This document shows positions 3,839 through 34,728 of a stretch of 64,000 bases of DNA, one piece after another. The notes under the pieces are model-generated. The model saw only the letters and a program-made list of their open reading frames with translations. It was not told the origin of the DNA and searched no databases. Both the position numbers and the translations under genes were made by a program. Numbering within the stretch: position 1 is the stretch's first letter; each line of letters starts with the position of its first letter. The stretch is taken from assembly GCF_003018235.1 (NCBI RefSeq), contig NZ_CP027439.1; one strand, written 5' to 3'. This DNA comes from Escherichia coli. GTDB lineage: Bacteria; Pseudomonadota; Gammaproteobacteria; Enterobacterales; Enterobacteriaceae.

Positions 3839-3848
3839 GATAAATATA

Positions 3849-3878: not shown

Positions 3879-3880
3879 AA

Positions 3881-5535: not shown

Positions 5536-5573
5536 CTTAACGTACGTTTTCGTTCCATTGGCCCTCAGACCCC
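5536..5573 (-). repeat. Tn3-family 38-bp terminal inverted repeat (solo end)
   Basis: Reverse complement GGGGTCTGAGGGCCAATGGAACGAAAACGTACGTTAAG matches the Tn3-family IR consensus GGGGTCTGA...TGGAACGAAAAC...CGTTAAG. Confidence 0.8.
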
Positions 5574-6270: not shown

Positions 6271-6336
6271 CGTTCTAATGATACTGACGATTAATATAAA
6301 TAACATAGCCCAGCCAGAAGGCTGGGCTAACAGGAA

Positions 6337-6364
6337 GGCAGACTATTCACGTGTAGATAGTCTG
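6337..6364 (-). terminator. Hairpin downstream of SDR gene
   Basis: gcagactat-N10-atagtctgc, 9-bp stem immediately 3' of the minus-strand stop. Confidence 0.4.
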
Positions 6365-6365
6365 C

Positions 6366-7193: not shown

Positions 7194-7259
7194 GCGATGT
7201 TCCTTATTGTCGGTGGATCAGTGCGGCCTGATTACAGGCCGCAATCTCACTGGTTGATA

Positions 7260-8408
7260 CTACAATGCGAGTTTAAGGATTGTGGTTAACACATCCGGGG
7301 TGTAGGTCTCAGCCAGCCCGAACCAGCGGGTATTCCCTTCCAGGTTTTCCAGGATACGGGGAAAGTCTGCCTCCGTTATTCCCAGTTGTGACAGACGAGT
7401 TGGGGTACCAATTTTATCAAACCATTTTTCAAGCGCCAGGATGCCTTGTTCAGCGGTTTTCAAACCGAACAGATGCTGCGCAAAACGCTCAAACTGAGAA
7501 GGATTCTGGCTGTGGTACCACTTCATCCATGCAGGCATTACAACGGATAACCCTGCACCATGGGGAACATTAAAGAGGGCTGACAGAGAATGCTCAATCA
7601 TGTGATTAGGGTAGCTGAATCCTGACGTTCCGGCATAGATCAGGCCATTAAGTGCCAGCGTTGCTGCCCATGCAAATTCCGCCCGGGCGTTGTAGTCGCC
7701 CGCATCTGCCAGCAACATTTCCGTCGTCTCCATGACCGTTGCGATAACCGATTCAACCAGACGTGACTGGATTTTCGGCTGCACCGCTGCTGTGAAATAA
7801 CCTTCAATGGAATGGGCGATAATGTCCGCTGCCGAATAGACAAGATAGTCCCGGGAGACCGTCTGCATCAGTGCCGGGTTCACAACGGAGACTTTCGGAA
7901 ACGTATGCACGGAATGCAGAGCAAATTTTTCCAGCGTGGCGTCATTGGTGACAACGGCACCACCGTTCATCTCACTGCCGGTCGCGGCAAGAGTCAGAAC
8001 AGAAAACACGGGTAAGGCAGCTTCGATTTGTCCTTTACCGATAAACAAATCCCAGACGTCGTTCTCATAAAGTGCGCCTGCCGCGACAGATTTCGCACTA
8101 TCCAGTACAGAACCGCCGCCCACGCTTAAAATGGCATCAACCTGGTGAGCACGCGCCAGCTGAATACCTTCTCTGACCTTAGAAATCAGCGGGTTGCTGA
8201 CTATCCCGCCAAACTCTACATACTGAATGCCGTGCTTTGTCAGGCTGTCGCTGATAGTGCTGAACAAACCATCTCGCTTGATGCGGTCACTGCCAAACGC
8301 CAGCAGAACTTTACTGACTTTCTGCTCTGCTAGGATCTGGCCGATCAGCTTTTCTTTGTCTGCACCAAATTCAATTCGGGTCGGGTTATAAAAACTGAAA
8401 TTATCCAT
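7260..8408 (-). CDS. Iron-containing alcohol dehydrogenase (YqhD/BdhA-like aldehyde reductase)
   Basis: 382 aa, N-terminus MDNFSFYNPTRIEFG typical of Fe-ADH family. Confidence 0.85.
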   Translation of the reverse strand: MDNFSFYNPTRIEFGADKEKLIGQILAEQKVSKVLLAFGSDRIKRDGLFSTISDSLTKHGIQYVEFGGIVSNPLISKVREGIQLARAHQVDAILSVGGGSVLDSAKSVAAGALYENDVWDLFIGKGQIEAALPVFSVLTLAATGSEMNGGAVVTNDATLEKFALHSVHTFPKVSVVNPALMQTVSRDYLVYSAADIIAHSIEGYFTAAVQPKIQSRLVESVIATVMETTEMLLADAGDYNARAEFAWAATLALNGLIYAGTSGFSYPNHMIEHSLSALFNVPHGAGLSVVMPAWMKWYHSQNPSQFERFAQHLFGLKTAEQGILALEKWFDKIGTPTRLSQLGITEADFPRILENLEGNTRWFGLAETYTPDVLTTILKLAL

Positions 8409-8541
8409 CAGTCACCTCTGTGAAATTAAGTCTGTGAATGCTGTTCTGTGTAACAACACTATAAGCAACTGACTCACAACCAACCAGATGGTAATATGAT
8501 GAATCAGTTACAACTAAATGATGTAAATAAGAGTACTGCTC

Positions 8542-9498
8542 ATGATTAATGAACTGCGTTCAGTGACCACCTTTATCCGGACTGTTGAGCTGGGAAGTCT
8601 GAGTAAAGCTGCTGAAGCCCAGCAAATATCACCTCAGGCGGCGAGTAAGGCCTTAAAGCAACTCGAAAGCTCTCTGGGCGTGAGGCTGTTTCACCGCACA
8701 ACACGGAGTATGTCGCTCACTGAGGAAGGGCAACGGTTTCTCGAAGCAGCCAAACCAGCACTGACCGGGTTACAGCAGGCTTTTGCTTCTGTCCGGCAGA
8801 CGCGGGAGGGGTTTTCCGGGCCATTGCGCATAGTGGCTCCGCGTTCTGTTGTACAGCATATTATTCACCCTGTGCTGATTGAATATTGTCGGCTTTACCC
8901 GGAAGTTCAGCCTGATGTCCAGCTTGATGACGGGGTGGATAACTGGGTTGAGAAGCGCGTGGATGTTGGTTTTCGGATTGCTGTTTCACCGCAGGATGGG
9001 CTGATTGCCAGACGCCTGTTTCCGTTGCAACTGATTATATGCGCATCGCCTGCATATCTTCGCAAATATGGTATGCCGAAATCACTGCATGACCTCAGTA
9101 ATCACCGCTGTAATACATTTCGACATGCCGCAACCGGGCGATTACTTCCCTGGACTGTGAAGGAAGGAGACAACATACAGGAGCACTATGTTAAGCCTGC
9201 CATGTCGACAAATGATGAGATGCTGGAATTACATGCCGTCCTTGCCGGAGAAGTTATTGCTCAGGTTGCAGCACCGACAGCAGCGCAATACATACGATCA
9301 GGTCAGCTTGTGCCACTGTTACTGGAGAATATCGCTGATGTCCACAGCCTGTTTCTCTATTATGGGAGCCGGGTCGCTCAGCCACTTCGTATTCGCCGTT
9401 TTATTGACCTTGCTGTTGAGCGCCTGGCCAGTAGAAAGGGCTTTGTTTTTTCCTCAGAAGAACTGAGACAGGCACATATTGAAGGTATTGCAATGTAA
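8542..9498 (+). CDS. LysR-family transcriptional regulator
   Basis: HTH region plus LysR effector domain; divergent from Fe-ADH; paralog of 12146..13105. Confidence 0.9.
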   Translation: MINELRSVTTFIRTVELGSLSKAAEAQQISPQAASKALKQLESSLGVRLFHRTTRSMSLTEEGQRFLEAAKPALTGLQQAFASVRQTREGFSGPLRIVAPRSVVQHIIHPVLIEYCRLYPEVQPDVQLDDGVDNWVEKRVDVGFRIAVSPQDGLIARRLFPLQLIICASPAYLRKYGMPKSLHDLSNHRCNTFRHAATGRLLPWTVKEGDNIQEHYVKPAMSTNDEMLELHAVLAGEVIAQVAAPTAAQYIRSGQLVPLLLENIADVHSLFLYYGSRVAQPLRIRRFIDLAVERLASRKGFVFSSEELRQAHIEGIAM

Positions 9499-16086: not shown

Positions 16087-16521
16087 ATGGAAAATATGAT
16101 GAAAACTATGCGTGAGTATTTCCCCACGCGAACAGTAGTGTTCGAACAGTCTCTGGATATGTTTGGTATCACCCGGGGTAAGGATGGGAAGCTCATATTT
16201 CCCCGTCATTCTGATAACCGTTTCCCGATCGGGCGTATCCGCAAACGTCTGGCAGCTTATGGCTGGCGCGGAGAACGTCTGAATCAGGAAGTAGCGCGTA
16301 TCGTCGCGGGTCCTGGTGTTCTTCCTGAAAGAAATGATTACAGCATATTTTTTCCTTACGGATGGGAACGTAACCAGCTTACCCCTGAGATGCGGAGAAT
16401 GTTTCCCCGGAAGACTGGTCGCCGCGTGCTGCTTATGCTGGATGAGCTCCATTATATTCATGACGCCGGGGAGCGTAAGTCGTTTTCACCAGAAAGTAAT
16501 GAAGCACCCGAGGTATCATGA
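16087..16521 (+). CDS. Hypothetical protein, translationally coupled to the downstream recombinase
   Basis: ATG at 16087 preceded by CAGGAG; stop overlaps recombinase start (ATGA). Confidence 0.6.
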   Translation: MENMMKTMREYFPTRTVVFEQSLDMFGITRGKDGKLIFPRHSDNRFPIGRIRKRLAAYGWRGERLNQEVARIVAGPGVLPERNDYSIFFPYGWERNQLTPEMRRMFPRKTGRRVLLMLDELHYIHDAGERKSFSPESNEAPEVS

Positions 16522-17300
16522 ATTACCCTTCTCTTCCCGGACAGGCCTACGCCCCGGAAAAAGTGCATCTACCTATGGCCATCGATTACCCGGCAGCGCT
16601 GGCCCTGCGTCAGATGGCAATCGTCCAGGACGAACTGCCGAAATACCTGCTGGCCCCGGAAGTGAGCGCCCTGCTGCATTATGTCCCCGATTTGCACCGC
16701 AAGATGCTGCTGGCCACGTTGTGGAATACCGGTGCGCGCATTAACGAAGCGCTGGCCCTGACCCGGAGTGATTTTTCGCTGGTGCCACCCTACCCGTTTG
16801 TGCAACTGGCCACGCTGAAACAGCGGGCGGAAAAAGCGGCCAGAACAGCAGGAAGAACGCCTGCCGGCAGCCAGGCGCATCGCTTGGTACCGCTGTCAGA
16901 TAAACAGTACGTCAGCCAGCTGGAGATGATGGTGGCCACGCTGAAAATTCCCCTCGAACGCAGGAATAAACGTACTGGCAGAACAGAGAAAGCACGCATC
17001 TGGGAAATTACCGACCGCACGGTCCGTACCTGGCTCAGCGAAGCGGTTGAAGCGGCAGCGGCTGACGGGGTGACGTTCTCCGTGCCGGTGACACCGCATA
17101 CATTCCGTCACAGCTATGCCATGCACATGTTGTACAACGGTATTCCGCTGAAAGTGCTGCAGAGCCTGATGGGACACAAGTCAGTCAGTTCGACAGAGGT
17201 GTACACGAAGGTGTTTGCACTGGACGTAGCTGCGCGACATCGGGTGCAGTTCCTGATGCCCAGTGATGATGCTGTGGCTATGCTCAGGGGAAACACCTAA
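16518..17300 (+). CDS. Tyrosine site-specific recombinase (phage-integrase family, plasmid resolvase-like)
   Basis: 260 aa; catalytic residues in GARINEALAL, HTFRHSYAMHML and GHKSVSSTEVYTKV. Confidence 0.85.
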   Translation: MNYPSLPGQAYAPEKVHLPMAIDYPAALALRQMAIVQDELPKYLLAPEVSALLHYVPDLHRKMLLATLWNTGARINEALALTRSDFSLVPPYPFVQLATLKQRAEKAARTAGRTPAGSQAHRLVPLSDKQYVSQLEMMVATLKIPLERRNKRTGRTEKARIWEITDRTVRTWLSEAVEAAAADGVTFSVPVTPHTFRHSYAMHMLYNGIPLKVLQSLMGHKSVSSTEVYTKVFALDVAARHRVQFLMPSDDAVAMLRGNT

Positions 17301-17430
17301 GTGGTAAAACAACTGAAGATTACTCCAGTGTGGTCACTTAGCGATTGAGGCTAAGTTCCAGAGTGGTGGCGTTCAGTTATACCCAAGTGTGACAGGCTGA
17401 CGCGCCCGTCGGGCTTGTCCAACCCTTCGC

Positions 17431-17455
17431 CTGCTCAGATCCAAGATCTGAACAG
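17431..17455. promoter_or_regulatory. Candidate recombinase core site (imperfect palindrome)
   Basis: CTGCTCAGATCCAAGATCTGAACAG: 9-11-bp inverted arms around a short spacer, ~130 bp downstream of the recombinase stop. Confidence 0.3.
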
Positions 17456-17615
17456 ACTCACGGTTTGCGCGGTGGGTCAACAAAATTAAATACGATCACC
17501 AGAAATATTTTCTGGACACTTTTTCCGATAGTGCCGAATTGTCCAGGTTGGAAAGCATTTTTTGTGCGTTGTTGAAGGGCCGCGACGAGTGGAGCAAGGT
17601 GACAAAAATAATGCT

Positions 17616-17639: not shown

Positions 17640-18129
17640 TATGGGGAAAGGATTACGTGACGGGGCGGGTTTGCTAGCAGTTCTGCGAACGTACCAGCGC
17701 ATCGAGGACTGGTAATGCCAGCAGGCTATTACGTCCGGGCTGGAAAATCGAGAGTTGCGATGATGACGAGGCAAGGGGATCGCAGACATTAACCTCTGCA
17801 ATAGAATATCTATTGCGTGATTTATTATAAATGTTATCCCTTTATTGTTTTCCAATTATCCCCGCAGTTGAAGAAATCAGCACTGAATAAAATTTTCAAA
17901 ATTTTATTCATGATGCTTACAAATAAATTAATGTAGATGAATCATCGGGATAGACTATTCTACATCAACTGCATTCTTAATTTTACGTCAAAATCAAGCG
18001 TTGCACTAAAATAAATCCTTACTAGAATAGCTATCCAGAAGAATCACCATGTATTCTTCAGTCTGACCCTCGGGCGCAGATTCTTGTTGTATTAAAATAT
18101 TGGGAAAATAAATCAGGAGTGAAAATGCA

Positions 18130-18441
18130 GTGACAGAGACACGTTACACAACGTCTGAAAGCAAAAAAGCCCTGAATAATCAGAGCTTTATTACTGGATT
18201 GGAAATGACGGCCATCAAATCCAATTCAAAACACACCAAAGGCATGTCCTCAAGTGATGAAGATAATAGAAAACTATTCAATCTACGTCAACCGAATGCC
18301 TGCGGTAACAATCCCAAAGCCGTTATCGGAGGTACGATTATGTTGCCATTGCTCAACACGTTCATGAATGCCCCTCTTCTGAGTCAGGGGGCTACTATCC
18401 TGTTTCTTGGGCTTCTTATCCTTGCGCTCAAGAACCAGTGA
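18130..18441 (+). CDS. Small protein with C-terminal transmembrane tail (family A)
   Basis: C-terminal hydrophobic stretch IMLPLLNTFMNAPLLSQGATILFLGLLILAL; shares FNLRQ...GG...LL.Q pattern with 19121..19450; start codon uncertain. Confidence 0.5.
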   Translation: MTETRYTTSESKKALNNQSFITGLEMTAIKSNSKHTKGMSSSDEDNRKLFNLRQPNACGNNPKAVIGGTIMLPLLNTFMNAPLLSQGATILFLGLLILALKNQ

Positions 18442-18476
18442 TCGCACTGAGCTGGCTTCGGCCAGCTTCTTTACTT

Positions 18477-18500
18477 GGATAGAATCACCTGAACGTCCAG
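18477..18500 (+). repeat. Conserved inter-cassette site, copy 2
   Basis: GGATAGAATCACCTGAACGTCCAG, 36 bp after stop of 18130..18441. Confidence 0.7.
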
Positions 18501-18595
18501 TCGGGCGCTAATTTATAATAAATGACCGTAGAAGGGCCATTTCTACGGCAAAGTTCTGGAGATGATAAAATAAGGGCCTTAAACAATAAAAGGGC

Positions 18596-19003
18596 TTGCT
18601 TATGACACTGGACCAACTGCTTGAAATCCACGACTGCGCTGGGCTGAGCACCTATGAACAGGAAACAATTATATCTTTCATTAACCAGCGGCGAGGTGAC
18701 TTTGGTGTAAAAGCGTTTCCGGAAATTATGCCTCCAGTATCTTGCGGCTGGATCTCCAGAAGAACAAAACAACGTTCTCAGGAGCAGGCAGACGAAAATA
18801 GCTGGAATTATTATAAACAGAAGATTCAGGAATGGATAACGCTAATCGAATTGCATGAGGCATCACTTACTAGGGGGGAAAAGCTAAAGCGCTTTGTGGG
18901 AAAGCATAAATGGTGGTTAGGAGGCACTTGCGCAGTTATCGCATCAATTACAAGCACTGTGATAGCTAGCTGGATTCTTTCGTTATGGACTTGGGCTAAC
19001 TGA
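18596..19003 (+). CDS. Small protein with C-terminal transmembrane segment
   Basis: 135-aa ORF; C-terminal WWLGGTCAVIASITSTVIASWILSLW. Confidence 0.5.
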   Translation: MLMTLDQLLEIHDCAGLSTYEQETIISFINQRRGDFGVKAFPEIMPPVSCGWISRRTKQRSQEQADENSWNYYKQKIQEWITLIELHEASLTRGEKLKRFVGKHKWWLGGTCAVIASITSTVIASWILSLWTWAN

Positions 19004-19005
19004 CG

Positions 19006-19030
19006 TGACAGAAGCTGCGTTACGTCCAAG
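19006..19030 (+). repeat. Conserved inter-cassette site, degenerate copy
   Basis: GTGACAGAAGCTGCGTTACGTCCAAG directly after stop of 18596..19003. Confidence 0.5.
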
Positions 19031-19120
19031 TTGATAAAAAGTTGTTATCCACAGAGAACAGGGCGGTCATCCGGCGGGTTCAATAATATGATATTATTAC
19101 AGCACCTTAAAAAATAAGGA

Positions 19121-19450
19121 TTGCGGACGGATGATATATTGATAAAGGATACTCATGCGTGTAAAACGCAAAATACCCTGAGTAATCAGGGTATTAAACG
19201 CGGAAAAGTAAAGGTTGAGCGCTTTACATTTTCCATTCACACCAGAGGCGTGACTAAATCTAAAATTGATTCTACGGCAACGTTCAATCTACGTCAAATC
19301 GCCAATGGTTTTCCTGTTATGAAAATTACCGGAGGCTTCATGTTGTTAACCATCATCGACACCTATCTTCATGCTTCATTACTGACACAGATACTGGTAA
19401 TCCCGTTTATCTGTGCGGTGGTGTGGGCGGTAAAGAAAATCCGGGTATAA
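19121..19450 (+). CDS. Small protein with C-terminal transmembrane tail (family A paralog)
   Basis: ATFNLRQIANGFPVMKITGGFMLLTIIDTYLHASLLTQILVIPFICAVVWAV parallels the C-terminus of 18130..18441. Confidence 0.5.
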   Translation: MRTDDILIKDTHACKTQNTLSNQGIKRGKVKVERFTFSIHTRGVTKSKIDSTATFNLRQIANGFPVMKITGGFMLLTIIDTYLHASLLTQILVIPFICAVVWAVKKIRV

Positions 19451-19504
19451 CTTAAACATGGCTGGCTGAGAGGCCAGCCATGTTCAGTGAGTTTTGTTTC
19501 GAAT

Positions 19505-19529
19505 GGACAGAATAACCTGAATGTCCAAG
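19505..19529 (+). repeat. Conserved inter-cassette site, copy 3
   Basis: GGACAGAATAACCTGAATGTCCAAG. Confidence 0.7.
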
Positions 19530-19645
19530 TTTGCAAGGAATTGTGATCGTACTACAACCAGTGTCAACCTTCCTATAATGCAGATAATCTTCTATAATTT
19601 CTTTTAATTCTGTGGCGATGTCATTAAGGAAAAGAGGTATTATTT

Positions 19646-19903
19646 ATGGGAAATAAACACATCAGCGCCAGTGAAGCTAAAAAGATTAGTTCTTCAGTGA
19701 TACCTGATGCAGACAAAACACTTGATATGATATTTGGAGGAATAAAGCTCCAAGCAAGATTGGGCCAGACATCCTTTATTTATCCTGTCCATGAAAACAT
19801 TCTTGAGCAAGTGGTCAAGGTTCTAAGGGAATCTGGTTATAGGATTAACTCATCGAAGGCTAATGAGAATAACAAATTTATTATTGAAATTAGCTGGCAG
19901 TGA
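19646..19903 (+). CDS. Hypothetical small soluble protein
   Basis: 85-aa ORF with GAGG-like RBS (aaaagaggtattatttATG). Confidence 0.5.
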   Translation: MGNKHISASEAKKISSSVIPDADKTLDMIFGGIKLQARLGQTSFIYPVHENILEQVVKVLRESGYRINSSKANENNKFIIEISWQ

Positions 19904-19962
19904 AATAGAATCCGCTTTGTCTTTATTTTACCCTTGAAGCCACCCATTAGTGTGGCTTTTTT

Positions 19963-19986
19963 TGACAAGATTACCTGAATGTCCAG
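19963..19986 (+). repeat. Conserved inter-cassette site, copy 4
   Basis: GACAAGATTACCTGAATGTCCAGG. Confidence 0.7.
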
Positions 19987-19998
19987 GTAACGCGGGGA

Positions 19999-20445
19999 TT
20001 AATGAGAAGAATAGGTAGTTGGTATATTTAGCTTGAGTCCAATCTCCTTTATGAGATTGTAGGTATTTTCCTTACTGTTGCCAGCAAGTATTGAGGTGAT
20101 CTCATTAAGGTTTTGTGCTGCACCAAGAACTTCACCCTTTGATGGTACAAACTTCATACCTAAATAGCTTCTTTTTAGGCTACCAGGCAAGGCTGCATAC
20201 TTTGCCATTAACTGAGAAGCAGCATCTTTCAAATCGTGGATGGTTTCATGATTAGCTCTGAAATTTGTGATCGTCGCTTGCTCACGTAATAAAAGCGCTG
20301 TAATCCTCCCTAATTGTTCTCTGAATGATATATAAGGCTCAATGAATCTTTTTGCGATGAGTTGACCAACAACAAAAACGGTTACGCCGGTCAGAACAGT
20401 TACGGCAGCAGACGAACTCATAATTGTACCTAGTGACTGAATCAT
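19999..20445 (-). CDS. Hypothetical protein with N-terminal transmembrane helix
   Basis: 148 aa; N-terminal AAVTVLTGVTVFVVGQLIA; divergent from 20563..21042. Confidence 0.5.
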   Translation of the reverse strand: MIQSLGTIMSSSAAVTVLTGVTVFVVGQLIAKRFIEPYISFREQLGRITALLLREQATITNFRANHETIHDLKDAASQLMAKYAALPGSLKRSYLGMKFVPSKGEVLGAAQNLNEITSILAGNSKENTYNLIKEIGLKLNIPTTYSSH

Positions 20446-20483
20446 GGGGGTTATCCTATCTGGAGGGCAACAGCCTGTCTACT

Positions 20484-20507
20484 GTACAGAAAATGCTGTA
20501 TGTCCAG
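20484..20507 (+). repeat. Conserved inter-cassette site, divergent copy 5
   Basis: GTACAGAAAATGCTGTATGTCCAG between the divergent ORFs. Confidence 0.5.
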
Positions 20508-20562
20508 TCTGTGCTGGAATTATAATGGCAACCATGATCATCACAGGAAGAACGAGTAACAG

Positions 20563-21042
20563 ATGGCAACTGCGTGGGTGGATGTGGCTGATAATGCCGT
20601 AAAAATAGGTTTGGGGTCGTTGTTGACTATTTTAGGGGGGTGGCTGACTCTTAAGCTAACACAAAAGCACGAATTAAAAAAAGAAGCGGCAGTACAGGGA
20701 TTAAAAGATAAAGAAATAAAAACCAAACGATATGTGGAGTTTCTGACCTTGTCTCAATCTCTCATGCAAAAATATTTATATGAGCAGTGTGAAGCAAATA
20801 ACGATGATTATCTTGCCTATCTTCGCATACATAATGAGATAACGATCACGTCAGGTTTAGCCATAAGGAAAGCAGCATTTAAACTCCAGTTTGATGTTTC
20901 TACTTTCATTTTCTACAACAAAATACACGACACAGAACTCATTAATGCACTGAGGGATAAGGCTAGAAATTCTGTTTCCATGTTTCAGGCCATTGTGAAT
21001 GAGGAAATCTGCAACGGAAAGTTTGGCACAGCAAGCCAGTAG
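20563..21042 (+). CDS. Hypothetical protein with N-terminal transmembrane helix
   Basis: 159 aa; N-terminal IGLGSLLTILGGWLTLKL. Confidence 0.5.
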   Translation: MATAWVDVADNAVKIGLGSLLTILGGWLTLKLTQKHELKKEAAVQGLKDKEIKTKRYVEFLTLSQSLMQKYLYEQCEANNDDYLAYLRIHNEITITSGLAIRKAAFKLQFDVSTFIFYNKIHDTELINALRDKARNSVSMFQAIVNEEICNGKFGTASQ

Positions 21043-21046
21043 CGCT

Positions 21047-21071
21047 GGGCAGAATAACCTGAATGTTTAAC
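21047..21071 (+). repeat. Conserved inter-cassette site, copy 6
   Basis: GGGCAGAATAACCTGAATGTTTAAC, 4 bp after stop. Confidence 0.6.
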
Positions 21072-21299
21072 TGCCGGAGGAATTAACCGAGGGGCGTGAA
21101 AAGGCCGCTTACGCGGCCTCAGTTTTCTCTTGAACTCCTGAAGTCTATGTAGTCGATAAACTCAAGAATATAGTAGGCAATCACGCCTGTACCTACATAG
21201 ATAGCTCCGAATATCAGTGACTCACTCATTGAAGTGTACTCCTGAATAACACTCTATTGCACATAGCCGCAAGCCAGATCCCTCGCATCCAGTATAACC

Positions 21300-21490
21300 G
21301 GACTTACTCCACTGCAGTTTCAGAAACAACTACGTCTACAGGAAGCCAGACGATTGATGTTACGAGGTTCAGATGCCAGTATTGCCGGGTACAACGTTGG
21401 ATATGAAAGCACAAGTCAGTTCTCCCGGGAATATAGACGTTACTTCGGCTATCCCCCCAAAAAGGACATTGCACGATTACGCGAAACATA
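21300..21490 (+). pseudogene. AraC-family regulator, C-terminal HTH fragment only
   Basis: Translation ...[30 protein letters not shown] matches the second HTH of AraC/XylS proteins; no upstream body. Confidence 0.6.
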
Positions 21491-21529
21491 AACATCTTTG
21501 ACATTCGCGACGTCCGACCAGCCGAACAG

Positions 21530-21554
21530 GATAGAACACCCTGAACATCTCGGC
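21530..21554 (+). repeat. Conserved inter-cassette site, copy 7
   Basis: GGATAGAACACCCTGAACATCTCGG. Confidence 0.5.
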
Positions 21555-21653
21555 TGACTGTGCTTTCATTTTTAGTCGGTTAAGCAGACGCTTTTCTGTA
21601 ATTTCTTTCAGTTCAATGTAGCTGATACTTAACTTTTTGAAATAACTAATATT

Positions 21654-21941
21654 TCACCTCATTCGTTCGCTGGCAAGATTATAAACATCACTACGTTCAC
21701 GTTTCCCTACAGCAACAACAGCGATAACTAATTGATCATCAATCACCTGATAAACCAGGCGGAAGCCAGACGCACGAAGTTTAATTTTGTAGCAATCCTT
21801 TATCCCACGCAGTTTTGCTGATGGGATATGTGGATTTTCACTGCACTTCTTTAGCTTTTTAGCAAACTGCTGCTGAATTGCCTTATCCAGTTTTTGCCAT
21901 TCTTTCAGTGCATCTTCCCTGAATCTGACTGTGTAAGTCAT
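21654..21941 (-). CDS. RelE/StbE-family type II toxin
   Basis: 95 aa; ...CYKIKLRASGFRLVYQVIDDQLVIAVVAVGKRERSDVY resembles plasmid StbE/RelE. Confidence 0.85.
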   Translation of the reverse strand: MTYTVRFREDALKEWQKLDKAIQQQFAKKLKKCSENPHIPSAKLRGIKDCYKIKLRASGFRLVYQVIDDQLVIAVVAVGKRERSDVYNLASERMR

Positions 21942-22189
21942 AGGTAGCTATCCAGATCTACATCGTGCAGCTTCTGGTTGCTGCGTTCGGCGACCAGATT
22001 AACCAGTTCCTGATCGTCTAGGGCATCGAGCATCTTTTCATACAGTTCTGCGGGGACACAGTAAAAGGCGGGCTGGTTACGGTTCAGAATCGCGACTGGG
22101 TAACCATCACCGGCACTGACTGTCGCCATCGGGTTTTTTTTCAGTTCGCTGACACTGGCGCTAGTGTCACTCAGAATAATGTGGGGCAT
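21938..22189 (-). CDS. Phd/YefM/StbD-family antitoxin
   Basis: 83 aa, overlaps toxin start by 4 bp; classic antitoxin-toxin order. Confidence 0.8.
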   Translation of the reverse strand: MPHIILSDTSASVSELKKNPMATVSAGDGYPVAILNRNQPAFYCVPAELYEKMLDALDDQELVNLVAERSNQKLHDVDLDSYL

Positions 22190-22271
22190 AGGGCACCTTT
22201 AGAGACTATTTAACAGGTCTTTATAGTGTTCTAAAAAAGACCTCTTAACAAGTCTTTTTGTCATTTTACTC

Positions 22272-22316
22272 AATGTGCCGTAAAGCCCCGCCCTTCAGGG
22301 CGAGGAGGATGTCAAA
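22272..22316 (+). repeat. 45-bp direct repeat with hairpin, copy 1 (second copy at 26028..26072)
   Basis: AATGTGCCGTAAAGCCCCGCCCTTCAGGGCGAGGAGGATGTCAAA. Confidence 0.7.
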
Positions 22317-22412
22317 TAATAGGACCCCGAAAGGATTAGTAATGTGGCGTCTTTGCTACACAGGTGCTTTTGTAATATGTTGTATAGCGTACTCACTACA
22401 CAGGAGATGTGT

Positions 22413-22952
22413 ATGGCATTGTCACAGATCAGCGTTCGTATTGATGATGAACTCAAACAACGCACGGATGAAAAAATGAAACTGCTGAGAACCAACCCCA
22501 CGCAGGCCATTACGTTGCTCTATCAGTATATTGCTGAAAATGGGAAACTTCCCTTTACTGTCAGCACCCAACTCTTCACTTCAGAGGATTACACCCAAAA
22601 ATTAATCACCACAGTCAGATCTATTTATGAATACTGGCGCGCGCTTTCTGAGACATCAGCAACAACCAGAACGAAAAGTGGAATGGCCTATTCAATGGCA
22701 ATGGCAGCACATGTTTCGAAGCTGCACAGCGATCTGATACACAACTGCGGCACCTTGAGTGGTGAAGAAGTTGCCTCATTAATGATTGTTATGGAGGACA
22801 TTCTTTCTACGCCGCCATCTTTTTATCGCGGAGAAGCGCCCGATCAGGTGTTTCAGGATAAATTAAACGCTGCTGACCAAACTATTCTGATGATTGAAAA
22901 ATGTCATGGTATGAATGTTCAACGCGGGGAAAATTTTTACGCTCTCAGATGA
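22413..22952 (+). CDS. DinJ/RelB-like ribbon-helix-helix N-terminus with ~130-aa C-terminal extension
   Basis: N-terminal MALSQISVRIDDELKQRTDEKMKLLRTNPTQAITLLYQYIAENGKLPF resembles DinJ antitoxins; C-terminal domain unrecognised. Confidence 0.5.
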   Translation: MALSQISVRIDDELKQRTDEKMKLLRTNPTQAITLLYQYIAENGKLPFTVSTQLFTSEDYTQKLITTVRSIYEYWRALSETSATTRTKSGMAYSMAMAAHVSKLHSDLIHNCGTLSGEEVASLMIVMEDILSTPPSFYRGEAPDQVFQDKLNAADQTILMIEKCHGMNVQRGENFYALR

Positions 22953-22999
22953 ATGCACTGAATATGCAACAGCCCGTAAGGGTTTTTTTTGTGTACGCA

Positions 23000-23022
23000 G
23001 GACAGTTAATCCTAGTGTCCAG
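23000..23022 (+). repeat. Conserved inter-cassette site, copy 8
   Basis: GGACAGTTAATCCTAGTGTCCAG. Confidence 0.5.
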
Positions 23023-23085
23023 TGTGGAGCGGAAGTTACGTAACATTTGACGTAAGTATTTTTGGGATACTTATGAACTGAAATA

Positions 23086-23105
23086 AGATTTCGCATGCGA
23101 AATCT
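23086..23105. promoter_or_regulatory. parS-like palindrome 1
   Basis: AGATTTCGCATGCGAAATCT perfect palindrome. Confidence 0.6.
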
Positions 23106-23306
23106 ATTGCGTATCATTATTGATACTCTATGATTTCTCTGTATACTGTTCATATTGTCATGAACGTATGGCAACAAACGCAGTAGTAGATAGCTGCTTC
23201 TGCATCTTGGCGCAACGCCTGACTCACAGGAGTGTGTATGAAATACCGCAATGAATTCATATCATTACAGCAATACTTTTTCAATCCGCGCCGCCCCCTC
23301 TCAAAC

Positions 23307-23322
23307 ATTTCGCATGCGAAAT
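23307..23322. promoter_or_regulatory. parS-like palindrome 2 (parA operator position)
   Basis: ATTTCGCATGCGAAAT 15 bp upstream of the parA start. Confidence 0.6.
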
Positions 23323-23337
23323 CTTAAGGACTGTTAC

Positions 23338-24204
23338 ATGACACTGAAAATTGGACCTATCGGAAAATTAATCGTTATATGTAGCCAGAAGGGCGGAATC
23401 GTAAAATCGCAGTCATCCAGCGAAATAGCATATGATCTTCGAGAATCAGGTTTTCGTGTGCTTGAAATTGATATGGACTGGACTACTGGTCTGACAGAGA
23501 GAGCTTTCCCCGATAGCTTACCCTATGAGATAGAGCGCGAACCTTTAAGTAACAGTTTTACACCCGGCGAAGCGAATACATATCAGCTTTTCTTCCCGGA
23601 CACTGAAGTTCGACCGATTGAGCTTCCTGGCGGGCGTTTTTTTATTGGCGCTACCAGTGAGCTTAATGAAATTAACTACCGCAACAGCGACTGTATGTTC
23701 GACTTCAGAGACCGTATTGAAGAACTGAAGAAACAGTTTGATTTTATTATTGCTGATTCAGCGCCATCATATTCAAACGTTATGATCGCCGCACATATGT
23801 CAGCTGACTATCTTCTGATCCCTACTCTGTTGGAGAAGCAGGCCCGAAATGCAGTTGGTAAACAGCTTACTTACATGCAAAAAATAAAACGGAACTATAA
23901 TCCATCGTTGCAGTTTATGGGCACTTATGTGACCCAAACACCGGTAAAAAATTATAAAAAGCCGCTTAAAGAAGGGTATTTGGGACCTATTGATACACTG
24001 AATCTGAATCTACTCATTGAGATCCTTCAGGGAAAAGGATATTCCGAAGAGTACATTCTTGCCTATATATCATTTGTACCTGCTGCTGCCAAAGAAGCGA
24101 TAGAACTTGGCCTCTCATTTGATGAATATGATCCTAAGTGTCTTCCTGCAATTCAGTATAAAGAGCTTACCCAGAAAATTATTCAGATCGCAGGAGATAA
24201 ATAA
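23338..24204 (+). CDS. parA: ParA-family partition ATPase
   Basis: Deviant Walker A (ICSQKGGIVKSQ); overlaps parB start (TAATG). Confidence 0.8.
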   Translation: MTLKIGPIGKLIVICSQKGGIVKSQSSSEIAYDLRESGFRVLEIDMDWTTGLTERAFPDSLPYEIEREPLSNSFTPGEANTYQLFFPDTEVRPIELPGGRFFIGATSELNEINYRNSDCMFDFRDRIEELKKQFDFIIADSAPSYSNVMIAAHMSADYLLIPTLLEKQARNAVGKQLTYMQKIKRNYNPSLQFMGTYVTQTPVKNYKKPLKEGYLGPIDTLNLNLLIEILQGKGYSEEYILAYISFVPAAAKEAIELGLSFDEYDPKCLPAIQYKELTQKIIQIAGDK

Positions 24205-25235
24205 TGGCCAAGAAACCGTTTATGAAACGACTCAAGGCGCAGCAGGAAATGAAAAAAAACTCTGCTGTTGTCTCTGATATTGAACAAGTCATTGCAAATA
24301 AACAGCCAGATGAGAAGAGCCATGACGTATCTGCGCACCAGATTTTGACAGATATTTCCCGCCCGGTTCTTGAACCTGATGGACAGATAATCCGCGTCGA
24401 TATAAACCTGGTTTATGCTGAGGAACAAGTACGACCTGAAGAAGATTTCGATGAAGAGGTTATCGATGGTATGGCAGATACTTTCGAAACCATAGGGATG
24501 CTTACCCCGCCTCGTTGTTATCCCCGCGACAGACGTGGATACCAGATATGGTTAGGAGAAACACGAGTTCGTACTGCACGTAAACGTGGTGATACCCATA
24601 TTGATATTTATGTCGGTAAACCACCACGAGAAAGAAAAGAACGAATCATTGGTCAGCTCATTGAAAACCTTCAGCAATCGGGTTTAAAACCATTAGCGAC
24701 TGCAAGATCGTTCTATGAACTTAAGCATCACTTCAATATGACGGGTGAACAGATCGCAAAAACGATGGGTAAACCAACCTCATTTGTCAGTAAACATCTT
24801 CGTCTCATTGATGCTCCAGAGAATGTTACCGCCCTTCTCCGGGATAAAGTGACATCCGATATTGATTTGGCTTACACACTAATACAGGTAAATGAAAGGG
24901 CTCCTGAAGAAGCCGAGAAGCTTATTGCAGCTGCGCGGGAATCTGGTATTTCACGCGCGCAAGTTAAAGCTGTTCTTGATGAGGTTAAGAACAAAAGCAA
25001 CCGTGAGATTTCGCATGCGAAATCTAAAGCTCAGAATAAAAGGCCATCCAAGTCTCTTAATAACAATTCAGATGTAAAAAGCTGGCAGGTAGTTGTCGAG
25101 ATTGACGGTCAGCAGGGAGTAATAATGACCGACCGTGCGCCAGAGGAAGATGGCTATGTGTGGGTTAAATTAGATATTGGTGAAATATCCGTCGAGGCTT
25201 CAGAGGTTCGTGTCAAGGGAATGCGGTCTTTGTGA
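24204..25235 (+). CDS. parB: ParB-family partition protein
   Basis: 343 aa downstream of parA; ParB/Spo0J-like HTH region (GEQIAKTMGKPTSFVSKHLRL). Confidence 0.75.
   Translation: MAKKPFMKRLKAQQEMKKNSAVVSDIEQVIANKQPDEKSHDVSAHQILTDISRPVLEPDGQIIRVDINLVYAEEQVRPEEDFDEEVIDGMADTFETIGMLTPPRCYPRDRRGYQIWLGETRVRTARKRGDTHIDIYVGKPPRERKERIIGQLIENLQQSGLKPLATARSFYELKHHFNMTGEQIAKTMGKPTSFVSKHLRLIDAPENVTALLRDKVTSDIDLAYTLIQVNERAPEEAEKLIAAARESGISRAQVKAVLDEVKNKSNREISHAKSKAQNKRPSKSLNNNSDVKSWQVVVEIDGQQGVIMTDRAPEEDGYVWVKLDIGEISVEASEVRVKGMRSL
25006..25025. promoter_or_regulatory. parS-like palindrome 3 (inside parB)
   Basis: AGATTTCGCATGCGAAATCT. Confidence 0.55.
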
Positions 25236-25672
25236 TGAAATCAACCCCATTCACTGAAATGGCCACTGCATTCCGTGGCCAAATTGTCCGTCTCTGGGCG
25301 CTTCGATATCCCGGAACTCAATCCGAAGCAGCTGCTGCATTAACAGAAGCTGCTATCAATCTTGGATACGTTACAAGAAGTAGACCTGTGCCTGGAGCAG
25401 CCTTATTATCATGGTTATCGAATCCCGCTGAAACGCCTCTGTGGGCGGCTCAGACCGCATTAACGATGATGCTCAAGATTGGCTGGAAGCCAGAGAGTAA
25501 TCAAGAATGGTGTGGGATGTCGGCACTGATATTCAGAGCTAATCGTAAACTTTCACTTGAACTGTTAGTTGCATCCTTGCCTGATAGTATAGACAGGCAA
25601 ACTGCTACAGGATGGTTTGTGGCTGCAATAGAAGAAGATGCCCACTACCGTTATAACAGGAAATTCAGATGA
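25232..25672 (+). CDS. Hypothetical protein
   Basis: 146-aa ORF overlapping parB stop. Confidence 0.5.
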   Translation: MMKSTPFTEMATAFRGQIVRLWALRYPGTQSEAAAALTEAAINLGYVTRSRPVPGAALLSWLSNPAETPLWAAQTALTMMLKIGWKPESNQEWCGMSALIFRANRKLSLELLVASLPDSIDRQTATGWFVAAIEEDAHYRYNRKFR

Positions 25673-25992
25673 CCTTTCAGGAGCTTGATGCTTGTATTGC
25701 TGGCTCTGGTAGGCGTTCTATCGCTTCAGCGTTAATCGCTTTTATTCTCGATGCGTTTGATGATGGACAGGACGGAGTTGATCTTGATTCTTTCCAGAGC
25801 CAGATGCGCTTCGTTCGCAACAATGTAACAACCGTAGCCAACTATCTGCAGCGACAGGGGGTTCTCCATATACTGTATTACCGTGATGGTGCCGCAGAAC
25901 GTCAGTATGAGACCGTTAATAATTATGGACGATGGGCAAAACAGCACTATCGTCCTTCTCAGGCACTTATTCAGTTGCACCGCCGTAATTAA
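25669..25992 (+). CDS. Hypothetical protein
   Basis: 107-aa ORF, overlapping start/stop with the upstream ORF. Confidence 0.5.
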   Translation: MTFQELDACIAGSGRRSIASALIAFILDAFDDGQDGVDLDSFQSQMRFVRNNVTTVANYLQRQGVLHILYYRDGAAERQYETVNNYGRWAKQHYRPSQALIQLHRRN

Positions 25993-25994
25993 AG

Positions 25995-26020
25995 CAAAGA
26001 TTTCGCATGCGAAATCTTTG
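25995..26020. promoter_or_regulatory. parS-like palindrome 4 (26-bp perfect palindrome)
   Basis: CAAAGATTTCGCATGCGAAATCTTTG. Confidence 0.6.
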
Positions 26021-26027
26021 CTTACCT

Positions 26028-26072
26028 AATGTGCCATAAAGCCCCGTCCTTCTGGACGGGGAGGATGTCAAA
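26028..26072 (+). repeat. 45-bp direct repeat with hairpin, copy 2
   Basis: AATGTGCCATAAAGCCCCGTCCTTCTGGACGGGGAGGATGTCAAA; stem shows compensatory changes relative to copy 1. Confidence 0.7.
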
Positions 26073-26074
26073 GG

Positions 26075-27349
26075 TCATCGTATCATTGCCACCGGGAGGT
26101 CAGTCCAGCGTGTCGTATATGCTGGTGACAACATTTCGCGCTTCATTTGCCACTCAGGAGCTATGCCTCGCCCCGCAAACCACACTTTCCCAAGTCCAGA
26201 ATGGTTAATACCGTCCACGACTTTCATCAATTGATTACTGTTGCTTCGGGGCAGAGTATCATCAAACAGATTCAACTGTGAAACTCCGGTCGGCGTAAAA
26301 TCGTTCAGCATGCAGCCTGCCCTTACATAGCGGTGGCCATTCACCCAGATCCTGTCCAGGGCTTTGACGGCAGCGGCAATGATGTCCGGTGTATCCTGCG
26401 TGGGGATGAGCAGCTTTTCACTGGCCAGATTACCGTAGTAGGGCTCATTTACGGCAAACGGCGATGTTTTCACAAATACGACAATATGCCTGCAGAACTG
26501 CCGTTCGCCGCGCAGCTTTTCCGCAGCACGCTCAGCGTACTGACAGACTGCCTGACGCAGGGCTTCATACGTTGTGATACGCTCCCCAAAAGACCTGCTG
26601 CAGACAATCTGCTGTTTCGGCGGGGGAGCTTCTTCAAGCGAAATACAGCTTTCTCCGTTGAGTTCCCGGACCGTTCTCTCCAGTACAACGTTGAAATTCT
26701 TCCGGATAAATACGGGGTTCGCGCGCGCCAGCTGCAGTGCAGTGGTGATGCCCATTGTGCTTAGTTTCCTGGATATCCTGCTGCCAACTCCCCAGATTTC
26801 TTCCACCGGCTGCAGTGAAAGCAGTTTCTCCGTTCGTTTCGGATTGTGTGATGTCAGGGCAAGCACACCACCGAATTGTGGCCATTCCTTGGACGCCCAT
26901 TGCGCGCTTTTAGCCAGCGTTTTGGTTGGCCCCATCCCGACACCTATTGTCAGCCCCGTTCCTGAGCGCACGTGTTCGCGTAGCTGCCGCCCAAAGTCCT
27001 CATAGTCGATGCAGTTGTCTATACCACGGATATCGAGAAACATCTCATCGATGCTGTACTGTTCCACACGTGGCGCCAGCTCTTCTAGGTGAGTCATCAC
27101 CCTGTTAGACATGGACGCGTACAGCTCGTAATTGCTTGAGAACACGATGATCTGCTCAGAGAATTCCGCCTTCTTCAGTTGAAACCACGGCACTCCCATT
27201 TTGATACCCAGCAACTTCGCTTCTTTTGAACGGGCGATAACGCAACCATCATTGTTACTGAGTACCACAACCGGCTTGTTTCGCAAATCAGGTCGAAATA
27301 CTTTCTCGCAGCTGGCATAAAATGAATTCACATCAGCGAGCGCAAACAT
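26075..27349 (-). CDS. umuC: Y-family translesion DNA polymerase V catalytic subunit (UmuC/MucB-type)
   Basis: 424 aa; N-terminal [41 protein letters not shown]. Confidence 0.9.
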
Positions 27350-27771
27350 CAGCGTACCTCACGCGTCTTGTGTATGAATGCCGTCACTACCCCGAAAATC
27401 TGCAGATCTTCCGGATAGAGGGTGGGGTAGGCTGGATTCATCGGCAGCAGGGCAATACGGGGCTTAAGCTGCAGGCGTTTGACAGTAAACTCGCCGTCAA
27501 TTTCAGCAATAACGATGTCCCCCTGCAGTGGTTTTTCAGCTTTATCGACCACCATCAGATCACCGGAGTGCAACCCCATATTCTGCATCGAATCACCTAT
27601 GGCCCGGACAAAGAAAGTTGCAGCCGGACGTCGGATACAGTAGGCATTCAGATCCAGTTCGTCTTCGGTGTAGTCTGCGGCCGGTGACGGAAAACCTGCT
27701 GGGCAACGTTCGGTGAAAAGTGGTGCGGTAGATAGTTCTGGTTCAGGTGCCGCTGGAACAAAAAGGATCAT
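27349..27771 (-). CDS. umuD: UmuD/MucA-type protein (LexA-like self-cleaving peptidase)
   Basis: GFPSPAADY and GDSM...K motifs; start MILFVPAAP; stop overlaps umuC start. Confidence 0.85.
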
Positions 27772-30643: not shown

Positions 30644-30867
30644 TACAGGGGCAGGCGGTGGAGGCCGCCTGTCAGCCCGCGCGAAAACCCCTGGCAGGCT
30701 GACGCCTGCCGGAAGGGAAGCGGGCCACGCTGACGCGTCGCCCGTTACCCTTCCTGTTTGTGATGTGCCCGGAATGTTTTTTTCTGATGTTATTTTTCTG
30801 TGGTTACCGTGCTTGTTATTGTTCTTCTTCTTTTTCCTCTTCCTCTTCTTTCCGTTCCTCTCCTGTT

Positions 30868-31395
30868 TATGGCTTTTCCGGGCGTCCCCCTGACGGGGCG
30901 GGCTGTCGTGAACGGAGCCAGCGAAGCTGTCTCCGCCCTGGCGGGCTTCCATCCCTGACGCGAAACCCTGGCTTGCAGCGACCGTTCCGGTCGCGCCGCC
31001 TCTGTCGCGCCGTGGCCTGCGCTCCTGGCATCCCGGCAAAAGGCCGCCGGGATGTAAGGGGCAACGCCGTTTCGCGCACGCGCTCTCCGTCGTTGCGGCG
31101 GGCCCCTGCTCATTGCCTGCCGGGTGCCACACACCCGTATGAGTCCCTGTCGCCGGGGGCTGAGACAGCCACAACCTGCCGCACTGACTGTCCAGGGTAA
31201 ATGAACAGCCCACAAAATTTTTTACCCAAAAACCGGTAAAAAATTTTGCGTTCTGCCCAGGACAGGTGCGTCAGGCCGTGGCAGTGATGCCCCTTGCGGC
31301 GAAGGTTCTCAAACGGGTGAAGTTCATACCACAGGGAATACAGCAGCAGGTTCCCGCGAAACGTCAAAACCGCGGCTCCCGAAACTCAACGGGTG
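30868..31395 (+). repeat. Frpo/ssi-like leading-region repeat, copy 1
   Basis: ~500-bp GC-rich element shared with 34163..34700 and 39676..40128; contains hairpin AAAATTTTTTACC-N8-GGTAAAAAATTTT. Confidence 0.75.
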
Positions 31396-31907
31396 ATGTT
31401 CTTTAAAAATCAGGATTTATTTCAGCCTCCGGCAATACGCATTTATTTGTTCTGTCAGTCATCCGGCTGACAGGTAATGAGAACGCAGGAACAGAAGGAG
31501 GAAAACACCGGAAAGCGTCAGATGCAGATATGAAAAAAGCAGGTCAGGGACCTGCTTAATCCATGCCGCAGAGACTGCACGAACAGTTTTTGCGGCTCCA
31601 GTCAATCGTCATAAGAGGCTAAATTATGACAATAAGTATTGTTTCACCTTCCGCAGCGGCTGTAAAGCCCCGCCGTCATCCCCGTTTCAGACGCGAAGAC
31701 ATCCCCGCGCCGGAAATTGACCCCGTGCTGAAAGCCTTCGGGCGACACATAGCCCGGAGTTTTCACCGGGGGCGTGGTGCACACATCCCCGCCATGAAAA
31801 ACACGGCCTTCGGGCAGGTGCTCCGCACACTCGAACTGAAACGCGCTTTTAACTGATGAGGTGAGCCGCCCCGCGAGGGGCGGCAACAGACGGAAGGAGA
31901 ACATTTT

Positions 31908-33879: not shown

Positions 33880-34060
33880 TGACTCCGGGCAGGCGGGAGG
33901 ACAAATGCCCGTCTGCCCGCGCCGGGAAAAGACCGCGCGCCGGTGGCGCTGAAAGGGGCCGCGCTCACGCGCCGCCCCTTACATTACGCGGACATTCTGC
34001 TGTGGGCTTCTGTCTTTTCAGACCTGTCATTTGTCTGTTACTGATGATGTTGTTGTTCCT

Positions 34061-34108
34061 GCTACTGCTACTGCTACTGCTACTGCTACTGCTACTGCTA
34101 CTGCTACT
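34061..34108. repeat. Hexanucleotide tandem repeat (GCTACT)x8
   Basis: Eight perfect tandem copies read directly, followed by a CT-rich tract. Confidence 0.9.
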
Positions 34109-34162
34109 GTTCTTCTTTTTTCTGCTGTTCTGATTACTGCCTGTTTTGTTGTTCTCCTGCTT

Positions 34163-34700
34163 ATGCCTTTTCCGGGCGTCCCCCTGGCGGGGCGGGCTGT
34201 CGTGAACGGAGCCAGCGAAGCTGTCTCCGCCCTGGCGGGCTTCCATCCCTGACGCGAAACCCCGGGCTTGCAGCGACCGTTCCGGTCGCGCCGCCTCTGT
34301 CGCGCCGTGGCCTGCGCTCCCGGCATCCCGGCAAAAGGCCGCCGGGATGTAAGGGGCAACGCCGTTTCGCAAACCGCGCTTCACGTCGTTGCGGCGGGTC
34401 CCTGTCCGTTGTTGTGTCCGGTGCCATTCACCTGTTTAAGCCCCTGTCGCCGGGGGCTGATACAGCCACAACCGTCTCCGCCAGTCCAGGGGTGAAATGT
34501 ACATCCCGCAAAACTTTTTGCCCAAAAGCAGGCAAAAACTTTTGCGGTCTGCCCCCGGACAGTCGTTTCCGGCCGTGGCAGTGATGCCCCTTGCGGCGAA
34601 GGTTCTCAAAAAGGTGATGGTGAATACCGGAGGGAACAAAAGGCAGGTCCCCGCAAAACGTCAAAACCGCGGCTCCCGAAACTCAAAAGATGATGGGGGC
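34163..34700 (+). repeat. Frpo/ssi-like leading-region repeat, copy 2
   Basis: Near-identical blocks to copy 1 (GCGTCCCCCTG...GGCAACGCCGTTTCGC) and copy 3. Confidence 0.75.
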
Positions 34701-34728
34701 TGAAAACATCAACAGAAGGAGGCACATC

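Follow-up and report, generated by a model that had tools for sequence, protein, structure and literature searches.

An orphan AraC-family remnant at the edge of a plasmid cassette array is probably the scar of a 7,318-bp deletion

Near the end of an array of small gene cassettes on an Escherichia coli plasmid lie the last codons of a transcriptional regulator, and the fragment raises two questions: what became of the rest of the gene, and whether the part that is left still does anything. The stretch of DNA analysed, 64 kb in length and referred to here as the window, belongs to an F-type conjugative plasmid encoding TraC, TraN, TraH, a Rep3-type RepB, ParAB and UmuDC. A preliminary description had proposed that only the last ~60 codons of an AraC/XylS regulator, with its second helix-turn-helix (HTH), remain inside the array, that an array site follows them, and that the array has captured or truncated unrelated genes. 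The fragment and its immediate flanks are made up of the following features, in which L096 denotes the metagenome contig OLHG01000868.1.

21299..21303, + strand: CGGAC, bases 1-5 (the left arm) and sole surviving part of the site that closed the last cassette; left deletion breakpoint
21304..21491, + strand: AraC/XylS remnant, codons 237-298 plus stop of a 298-aa regulator with AraC_N and HTH_18 domains
21492..21527, + strand: native 3' flank of the AraC gene, 36 bp, colinear with L096 9346-9381
21528..21553, + strand: degenerate array site AGGATAGAACACCCTGAACATCTCGG, with a good left arm and centre and a right arm that is not GTCCA

The open reading frame list gives a + strand frame of 74 codons, 21267-21488, closing at the stop codon 21489-21491. 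This frame matches Pfam HTH_18 over profile positions 16-76 of 80 (E=1.7e-14, 54 bits, cut-off 33.6), and the match spans the second HTH only; what is left of the first HTH, which occupies residues 203-243 in the source protein, is its last few residues. The part derived from the regulator is 21304-21488, whose 62 codons encode a sequence identical to residues 237-298 of the 298-residue source protein, so that the proposed ~60 codons with a second HTH were borne out. We place the start of AraC-derived DNA at 21304 because homology to the plasmid p94EC-4 stops at 21303 (...TATAACCGGAC). Comparison with p94EC-4 and with the full-length gene indicates that GGAC at 21300-21303 is common to both parents, and the 12 in-frame codons 5' of the remnant (21267-21302) belong not to AraC but to the cassette, whose DNA is open here by chance.

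The fragment is also an orphan, as had been suggested. An in-frame upstream AraC body was sought by tblastn in all frames of the 64-kb window, and no part of the full-length protein other than residues 234-298 was found; since no AraC body is present in any frame, there is no hidden upstream continuation of the gene. The N-terminal sensor/dimerisation domain, AraC_N in the source gene, does not accompany the remnant in the window. A relative encoded on a Sphingomonas plasmid (298 aa, AraC_N + HTH_18) aligns to the window through residues 225-289 only, and nothing else in the 64 kb matches it in any frame. In RefSeq, the PGAP label on the identical sequence in plasmid pDEC5B-4 is that of a pseudogene, 'incomplete; partial in the middle of a contig; missing N-terminus'.

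The array beside the remnant has the following parts.

16518..17300, + strand: ResD-type tyrosine recombinase gene, 260 aa (Pfam Phage_integrase, E=7e-19), just upstream of the array
17379..17600, + strand: conserved leader before the first array site, aligning with the sequence that leads up to the first site in L090, L092 and L091 and with part of L008
17615..21071, + strand: cassette array with seven 26-bp sites, consensus TGGACAGAATnACCTGAATGTCCAAG, all in one orientation and starting at 17615, 18476, 19005, 19504, 19962, 20483 and 21046
21072..21298, - strand: body of the last cassette, with a 36-aa hydrophobic ORF (21119-21229) and a terminator-like hairpin (21102-21119)

Each cassette carries one small ORF. 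The sites were recognized as a repeat family, by a pattern search (4 matches against 0 expected) and by a matrix scan, the site consensus being drawn from 29 sites. The last cassette is 89% identical to its counterpart in p94EC-4 (L002 5001-5259) and 93.7% identical to L096 1585-1839. Its sole ORF, on the minus strand at 21119-21229 (MSESLIFGAIYVGTGVIAYYILEFIDYIDFRSSREN), is kept in p94EC-4-type plasmids and in L096; it has no Pfam match and could be a small membrane peptide or toxin. As to whether the remnant is inside the array, it lies at the distal edge, past the last canonical site (21046), and is not enclosed by a pair of good sites.

Plasmids (pDEC5B-4, p94EC-4, L093, L094) differ in which cassettes they carry and in the order of these, with the junctions falling within sites. 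The segment equivalent to window 17640-19503 is missing from pDEC5B-4, L093 and L094, with a junction inside a single site, and the same cassettes stand in other orders in p94EC-4 and other plasmids. When the same cassette is compared across contexts, the left cassette brings site positions 1-5 and the right one positions 10-26; the exchange point is therefore placed between 5/6 and 9/10. Further array loci were found at L002 5001-8389, L090 4232-8395, L091 2933-6905, L092 4237-6595, L006 3620-3974 and L096 1059-1860, and the array is widespread on enterobacterial plasmids (F-type, IncR-like and ~45-kb ones), near multimer-resolution and partition genes. Our literature search found no description of such an array, which is not proof of absence, and neither array nor leader has an Rfam match above threshold; the array is apparently undescribed. 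It is of greater interest than the AraC remnant.

The leader alignments adjoin different recombinase genes, and the stretch of L008 examined has no array site. Part of the leader is also present at L096 815-981. This ~200-bp leader was seen in four contexts, among them behind resD, behind an Rpn gene and in divergent orientation to a serine recombinase gene. Its sequence includes TGGACA-N20-ATGTCCAGG, and its inverted repeat varies between plasmids yet stays complementary (CAGATC..GATCTG in some, CAGAA..TTCTG in others).

The full-length source gene was found by scanning metagenome contigs with a back-translated pattern for an 18-residue peptide of the remnant. Two loci were returned: L095, which is the remnant itself with an insertion-sequence end at the equivalent of window 21256, as in pDEC5B-4, and L096, which holds a complete gene. 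The L096 gene (8449-9345) encodes 298 residues with Pfam AraC_N and HTH_18 domains; its C-terminal 62 residues are identical to the remnant, and the DNA is 96.7% identical over window 21294-21811. Between remnant and source gene there are two nucleotide differences, both synonymous. Other searches were less productive. Among PLSDB plasmids and 5,426 E. coli genomes (tblastn, blastn), the remnant was matched in pDEC5B-4 alone, and a word-indexed search of 5.8 billion proteins with a 74-aa query returned only a 55-aa self-match and short relatives at <=75% identity. That search missed the exact full-length source protein, though it is on record, as did one made later with the full-length sequence, and negatives from short queries need caution. 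A peptide-pattern scan of 100,044 species genomes gave, as the best among the matches listed, an 80% match in a Neisseria metagenome-assembled genome (MAG); over its 60 residues the remnant shares 80% identity with the end of that protein and ~75% with Pseudomonas proteins. For the full-length source protein, the best relatives are at 55% (unnamed) and 48% (Chelonobacter oris). The source gene has a GC content of 38%.

By architecture, the source regulator is an unremarkable AraC_N-type protein with no close relatives. Like other AraC_N (PF06719) regulators it combines AraC_N with HTH_18 and is divergent from oxidoreductase/hydrolase genes, the usual layout of the subfamily; the window remnant differs from these in keeping residues 237-298 only. 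The order of elements in L096 is as follows.

Array leader, then site (1059) with a 148-aa cassette
Site (1581) with the small-peptide cassette, 93.7% identical to window 21050-21303
1835: normal site, CGGACAAAATGATCTGCATGTCTAAT, 20.3 bits
Minus strand: genes of the CMD family, amidohydrolase_2, aldo-keto reductase, YdgH/BhsA-like, cupin, short-chain dehydrogenase and alpha/beta hydrolase types
8449-9345: AraC gene, divergent from the seven enzyme genes
9382, 36 bp after AraC: site TGGATAGAACATCCTGAACATCTCGG, 15.0 bits
Small-gene fragment and relE, the same as in the window

In this contig an eight-gene, 7.5-kb module (1840-9386) fills a single cassette position, and its GC content (41.8%) agrees with that of the cassettes (41.3%). 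The idea that the array captured unrelated genes is supported descriptively, in that AraC and seven enzyme genes form one 7.5-kb unit between two array sites in OLHG01000868.1. The module is absent from PLSDB, and the intact form was found in L096 and L098 only, the latter being a Logan contig that is 100% identical to OLHG01000868.1 and possibly from the same sample; coverage is ~6.6x. A chimeric assembly is unlikely, because the AraC gene is intact and both junctions resemble normal sites.

Aligned to L096, the window has the same arrangement minus 7,318 bp (L096 1840-9157). Window 21050-21303 corresponds to L096 1585-1839 and window 21294 onward to L096 9148 onward. On the left, L096 is broken after base 5 of a 26-bp array site (...CCAGTATAACCGGAC|AAAATG); on the right, between AraC codons 236 and 237 (...CAAATGACAGGAC|TTACTCC); the window carries the product (...CCAGTATAACCGGAC|TTACTCC). 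Base 5 of the site (...TATAACCGGAC|) was thus joined to AraC codon 237 (|TTACTCCA...), and both the source gene and the point of truncation can be named. The ends share a microhomology of GGAC (21300-21303), or 8 of 10 bases if it is written as ATnACnGGAC. An intact counterpart of the truncated site is CGGACGAAATGACGGGAACGTCCAAG in p94EC-4 (L002:5255), in which the sequence runs on past the position of window 21303 as CGGAC GAAATGACGGGAACGTCCAAG, the remainder of a normal site. The deleted 7,318 bp have no blastn match in the 64-kb window. When the eight module proteins were compared with the window, the one corresponding match was that of AraC residues 234-298, the others being to unrelated SDR paralogues at 22-34% identity.

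The scar is shared by three further E. coli plasmid records, pDEC5B-4, L093 and L094, the last two being draft assemblies. L093 and L094 are colinear with window 19504-27434, across both array and scar, and in pDEC5B-4, where the scar junction is retained, an IS3 insertion lies 48 bp left of it. In these three and the window, the context of the remnant is the same and the junction identical each time, and the 36-bp 3' flank of the AraC gene is present solely in the window lineage and L096. As a separate observation on pDEC5B-4 (L001 and L003, NZ_CP038392.1), two inverted copies of one IS3-family element flank the equivalent of window 20397-21255; that segment is missing, and array and AraC scar lie ~47 kb apart. 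This layout looks like an IS-mediated inversion with deletion, later than the scar, which moved it away from the array.

We therefore read the remnant as a deletion scar, an inert pseudogene left by loss of most of an eight-gene module, with a probability of about 0.88. In an ancestor plasmid the distal end of the cassette array held the 7.5-kb module, bounded by an array site on each side. A single 7,318-bp deletion in the window lineage then removed the seven enzyme genes along with the AraC promoter and start, AraC_N and the first HTH; the degenerate distal site of the module survived, together with 62 AraC codons and their native 3' flank of 36 bp. The comparison shows the deletion and its endpoints, whereas the agent that made it is inferred. 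The direction of the change is certain, because an insertion cannot rebuild 236 AraC codons and 21 site bases. The earlier suggestion of truncation by the array fits this well, as the window truncation begins exactly in the left arm of the site bounding the 7.5-kb unit. That of capture stands for the module as a whole but not for the remnant itself, which was left by the later deletion and not taken in as a fragment.

The alternative that the array picked up the remnant as a fragment of a foreign AraC gene, with the full-length metagenome locus unrelated or secondary, draws on the array-type sequence found on both flanks. We consider it very improbable. The full-length gene belongs to the same array and has, at 94-97% identity, the cassette found upstream and the junction found downstream of the remnant, and a later insertion that restored the 236 codons and 21 site bases is not credible; moreover, the left boundary of the remnant has only 5 site bases, and the remnant has never been seen in another array context. 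Judged as a cassette it fails at both ends, with 5 site bases (CGGAC) on the left and a 6.8-bit degenerate site on the right. Less probable still is a sequencing or assembly artefact, that is, a full-length gene that was frameshifted or mis-joined. We found no point in its favour, the AraC body being absent from every frame of the window and the identical junction recurring in three more independently deposited E. coli records.

Whether the remnant does anything is a separate matter. The loss of the promoter, the start codon, the sensor domain and one of the two HTH motifs argues, from sequence, that it is probably non-functional and inert. The native AraC start and the divergent promoter region fall within the deleted 7,318 bp, and a consensus scan of the + strand over 20900-21500 found no promoter-like site. 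The first in-frame starts are TTG at 21354 and ATG at 21357, giving at most 44-45 residues, or half a DNA-binding domain. It could nonetheless be imagined that this 44-45-aa HTH peptide, with AGGAAG 10-12 nt upstream of the start, is made and either binds DNA or interferes with an AraC-family regulator: the 62 codons have neither stops nor frameshifts, the differences from the intact gene are two and both synonymous, and a 55-aa product is called by one gene caller. We regard such a working small gene as highly unlikely, as it would have one of the two HTH motifs that the AraC family requires, the consensus scan gave it no upstream promoter-like site, it is labelled a pseudogene in RefSeq, selection cannot be read from just two synonymous changes in 185 nt, and it is confined to one plasmid lineage. 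The remnant is thus an ordinary gene remnant of a known kind, already annotated as such, and the 55-aa "helix-turn-helix protein" of some E. coli assemblies is best treated as a pseudogene. It bears the same label as the incomplete pseudogenes of mosaic plasmids in RefSeq, but here the parent gene, the 7,318-bp deletion and both breakpoints are known to the base.

How the deletion was made is harder to decide, and the odds are about even between the array's putative site-specific recombinase and plain microhomology slippage. The recombinase would have broken the DNA at the array site and joined it to a GGAC-bearing pseudo-site within the AraC gene. We favor this slightly, because the left endpoint coincides exactly with the boundary between arm and exchange region in a genuine site; the scar falls at site position 5/6, the left limit of the array's exchange interval. 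The site and the AraC pseudo-site are in direct orientation, and by a manual base count the pseudo-site is like its partner at 13 of 26 bases, including GGAC and CTGCA. At the other end of the module, too, an array site abuts a truncated gene. On the other hand, both sites that follow the same left cassette (L002:5255 and L096:1835) have a rare A as their base 7, and since this base goes with the left cassette, it hints that exchange takes place to the right of position 7. The scar retains AraC bases at site positions 6-7, a sequence that does not allow such an exchange, which counts against the recombinase.

The same deletion by replication slippage or RecA-independent illegitimate recombination between the copies of ATnACnGGAC has, in our estimate, somewhat less than an even chance; replication stalled at the site's inverted repeat (TGGAC...GTCCA) may have contributed. 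Identity at 8 of 10 bases at both breakpoints is sufficient for ordinary slippage, and the AraC pseudo-site has no conserved right arm; the 26-base junction sequence of the window, identical to it except at position 1, scores -18 bits. The rare position-7 base that stays with the left cassette likewise suggests that canonical exchange is to the right of the observed junction. Against slippage, the left endpoint is exactly on the 5-base left arm of the cassette-boundary site even though ~29 copies of GGAC are expected within the 7.3 kb that were lost, and the older junction between site and truncated gene at the other end of the module suggests that sites have been involved in joins repeatedly. 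In its strongest form, the recombinase explanation would make the junction 21303/21304 the footprint of an enzyme that shuffles an apparently undescribed integron-like array, one that takes in modules and erodes them by secondary-site deletion, but we hold this larger proposal as tentative and rather doubtful.

Whichever mechanism acted, the remnant provides a dated, base-resolved before-and-after pair for the surrounding cassette array. The pair shows that the array is able to hold a 7.5-kb regulated enzyme module, beyond single small genes, and that an array site can serve as the endpoint of a large deletion. The site at L096:1835 and the AraC pseudo-site make a concrete substrate pair for finding the recombinase that acts here and the position of strand exchange.

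The array resembles integrons in having one-gene units, short sites in a single orientation and an adjoining tyrosine recombinase gene, and in the shuffling of cassettes between plasmids with a defined exchange point that splits each site between neighbours; the joining of a site to non-site sequence is also as in integrase secondary-site events. The array differs from integrons as follows. The adjoining recombinase scores 63 bits on the integron-integrase model TIGR02249 (cut-off 265), and is on that ground not IntI, and it scores 49 on PRK15417 (cut-off 435). By inspection of the consensus, the sites are 26-bp and duplex-type, with no GTTRRRY core or attC-type long imperfect palindrome. Furthermore, most of each array site moves with the downstream cassette, and the neighbouring recombinase varies by plasmid, being ResD in some and a serine recombinase in others.

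A second point of comparison is the ResD/rfsF system of F, IncR and IncI1 plasmids, as the adjoining recombinase is a ResD orthologue, 86% identical over 252 aa to ResD of the F plasmid. The rfsF site is a hot spot of plasmid-backbone divergence (PMC8004404, PMC9412624), and in RepFIA it lies upstream of oriV-1, ccdAB and resD (PMC4398462). The array, in contrast, is downstream of resD, and arrays also stand beside serine recombinase genes (L090, L092). The identification of array sites with rfsF was dropped as unsupported, the described position of rfsF upstream of ccdAB-resD (PMC4398462) setting the two apart. Downstream of resD, the F plasmid has one half-degenerate site-like sequence only: the lone TGGACAGAACAACCTAATGAACACAG at 7970-7995 (L004, NC_002483), ~295 bp from resD. 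As at window 21528, an intact left half is combined with a degenerate right arm, and the sequence may be a relic of an array boundary.

The pdif modules of Acinetobacter plasmids, which are flanked by XerC/XerD sites, are similar as well: they too are small plasmid-borne modules of genes with a short recombinase site at each end, and toxin-antitoxin genes stand beside the present arrays (relE/phd in the window, L006 and L096). The array consensus, however, bears no resemblance to XerC/XerD arms, and all of its sites are in one orientation. Xer/dif-like sites were considered and rejected, as no dif-like 28-mer (GGTGCGCATAA-N6-TTATGTTAAAT, <=3 mismatches) occurs anywhere in the window.

Beyond the remnant, the array gives way to the following features.

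21554..21653, - strand: 5' third of a small gene, whose complete form in Salmonella and Raoultella plasmids has 82 aa, cut at the degenerate site, 85-98% identical to the 5' ends of plasmid genes
21654-21941, - strand: relE/parE-type toxin gene (Pfam ParE_toxin, E=4e-16)
21938-22189, - strand: phd/yefM-type antitoxin gene (PhdYeFM, E=1.6e-5, below the Pfam cut-off)

The array site said to follow the remnant is real, at 21528-21553, but degenerate. On the 29-site matrix it reaches 6.8 bits, where most sites have 20-40 bits, and only one other non-array position in the window attains that level. Its left half alone gives 12.3 bits, a value exceeded at three unrelated positions in the window. Judged by the window alone it is indistinguishable from a chance match, an explanation that we dropped given the L096 copy and the break in homology. 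The L096 counterpart at 9382 (TGGATAGAACATCCTGAACATCTCGG) scores 15.0 bits, a level met in 1 of 30 shuffles of the 64 kb. We accept 21528-21553 as a site because of this better-preserved copy and its exact position at the homology break; it is the distal boundary site of the former module, slightly more decayed in the window than in L096.

Homology of the small-gene fragment to its relatives, which are hypothetical genes in Salmonella, Raoultella and Klebsiella plasmids, begins at 21554. The junction of this fragment with the site is already present in L096 and is older than the AraC deletion. In the window, ATT occupies the position of the small gene's start codon. We also considered whether relE/phd had arrived together with the AraC gene and rejected this, since homologous modules occur elsewhere with no AraC nearby. 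Such modules are found at 70-85% identity on other plasmids, and the relE/phd module (21654..22189) is plasmid backbone, not part of the AraC gene.

Several other repeats were noted in the window. A 51-bp direct repeat, 86% identical between 22266-22316 and 26022-26072 and containing the GC-rich hairpin AAAGCCCCGCCCTTCAGGGCGAGGAGG, encloses two small ORFs, a RelB-like gene, parA and parB; its first copy is overlapped by a weak Rfam match to HgcC (E=0.011) that falls short of the threshold. A composite repeat of ~600 bp is present in three copies, 66-98% identical (30814-31413, 34108-34710 and 39674-40127), in the leading-region part of the plasmid, where GC content is 57-58%. A run of CTG/CTA triplets is found at 34035-34130.
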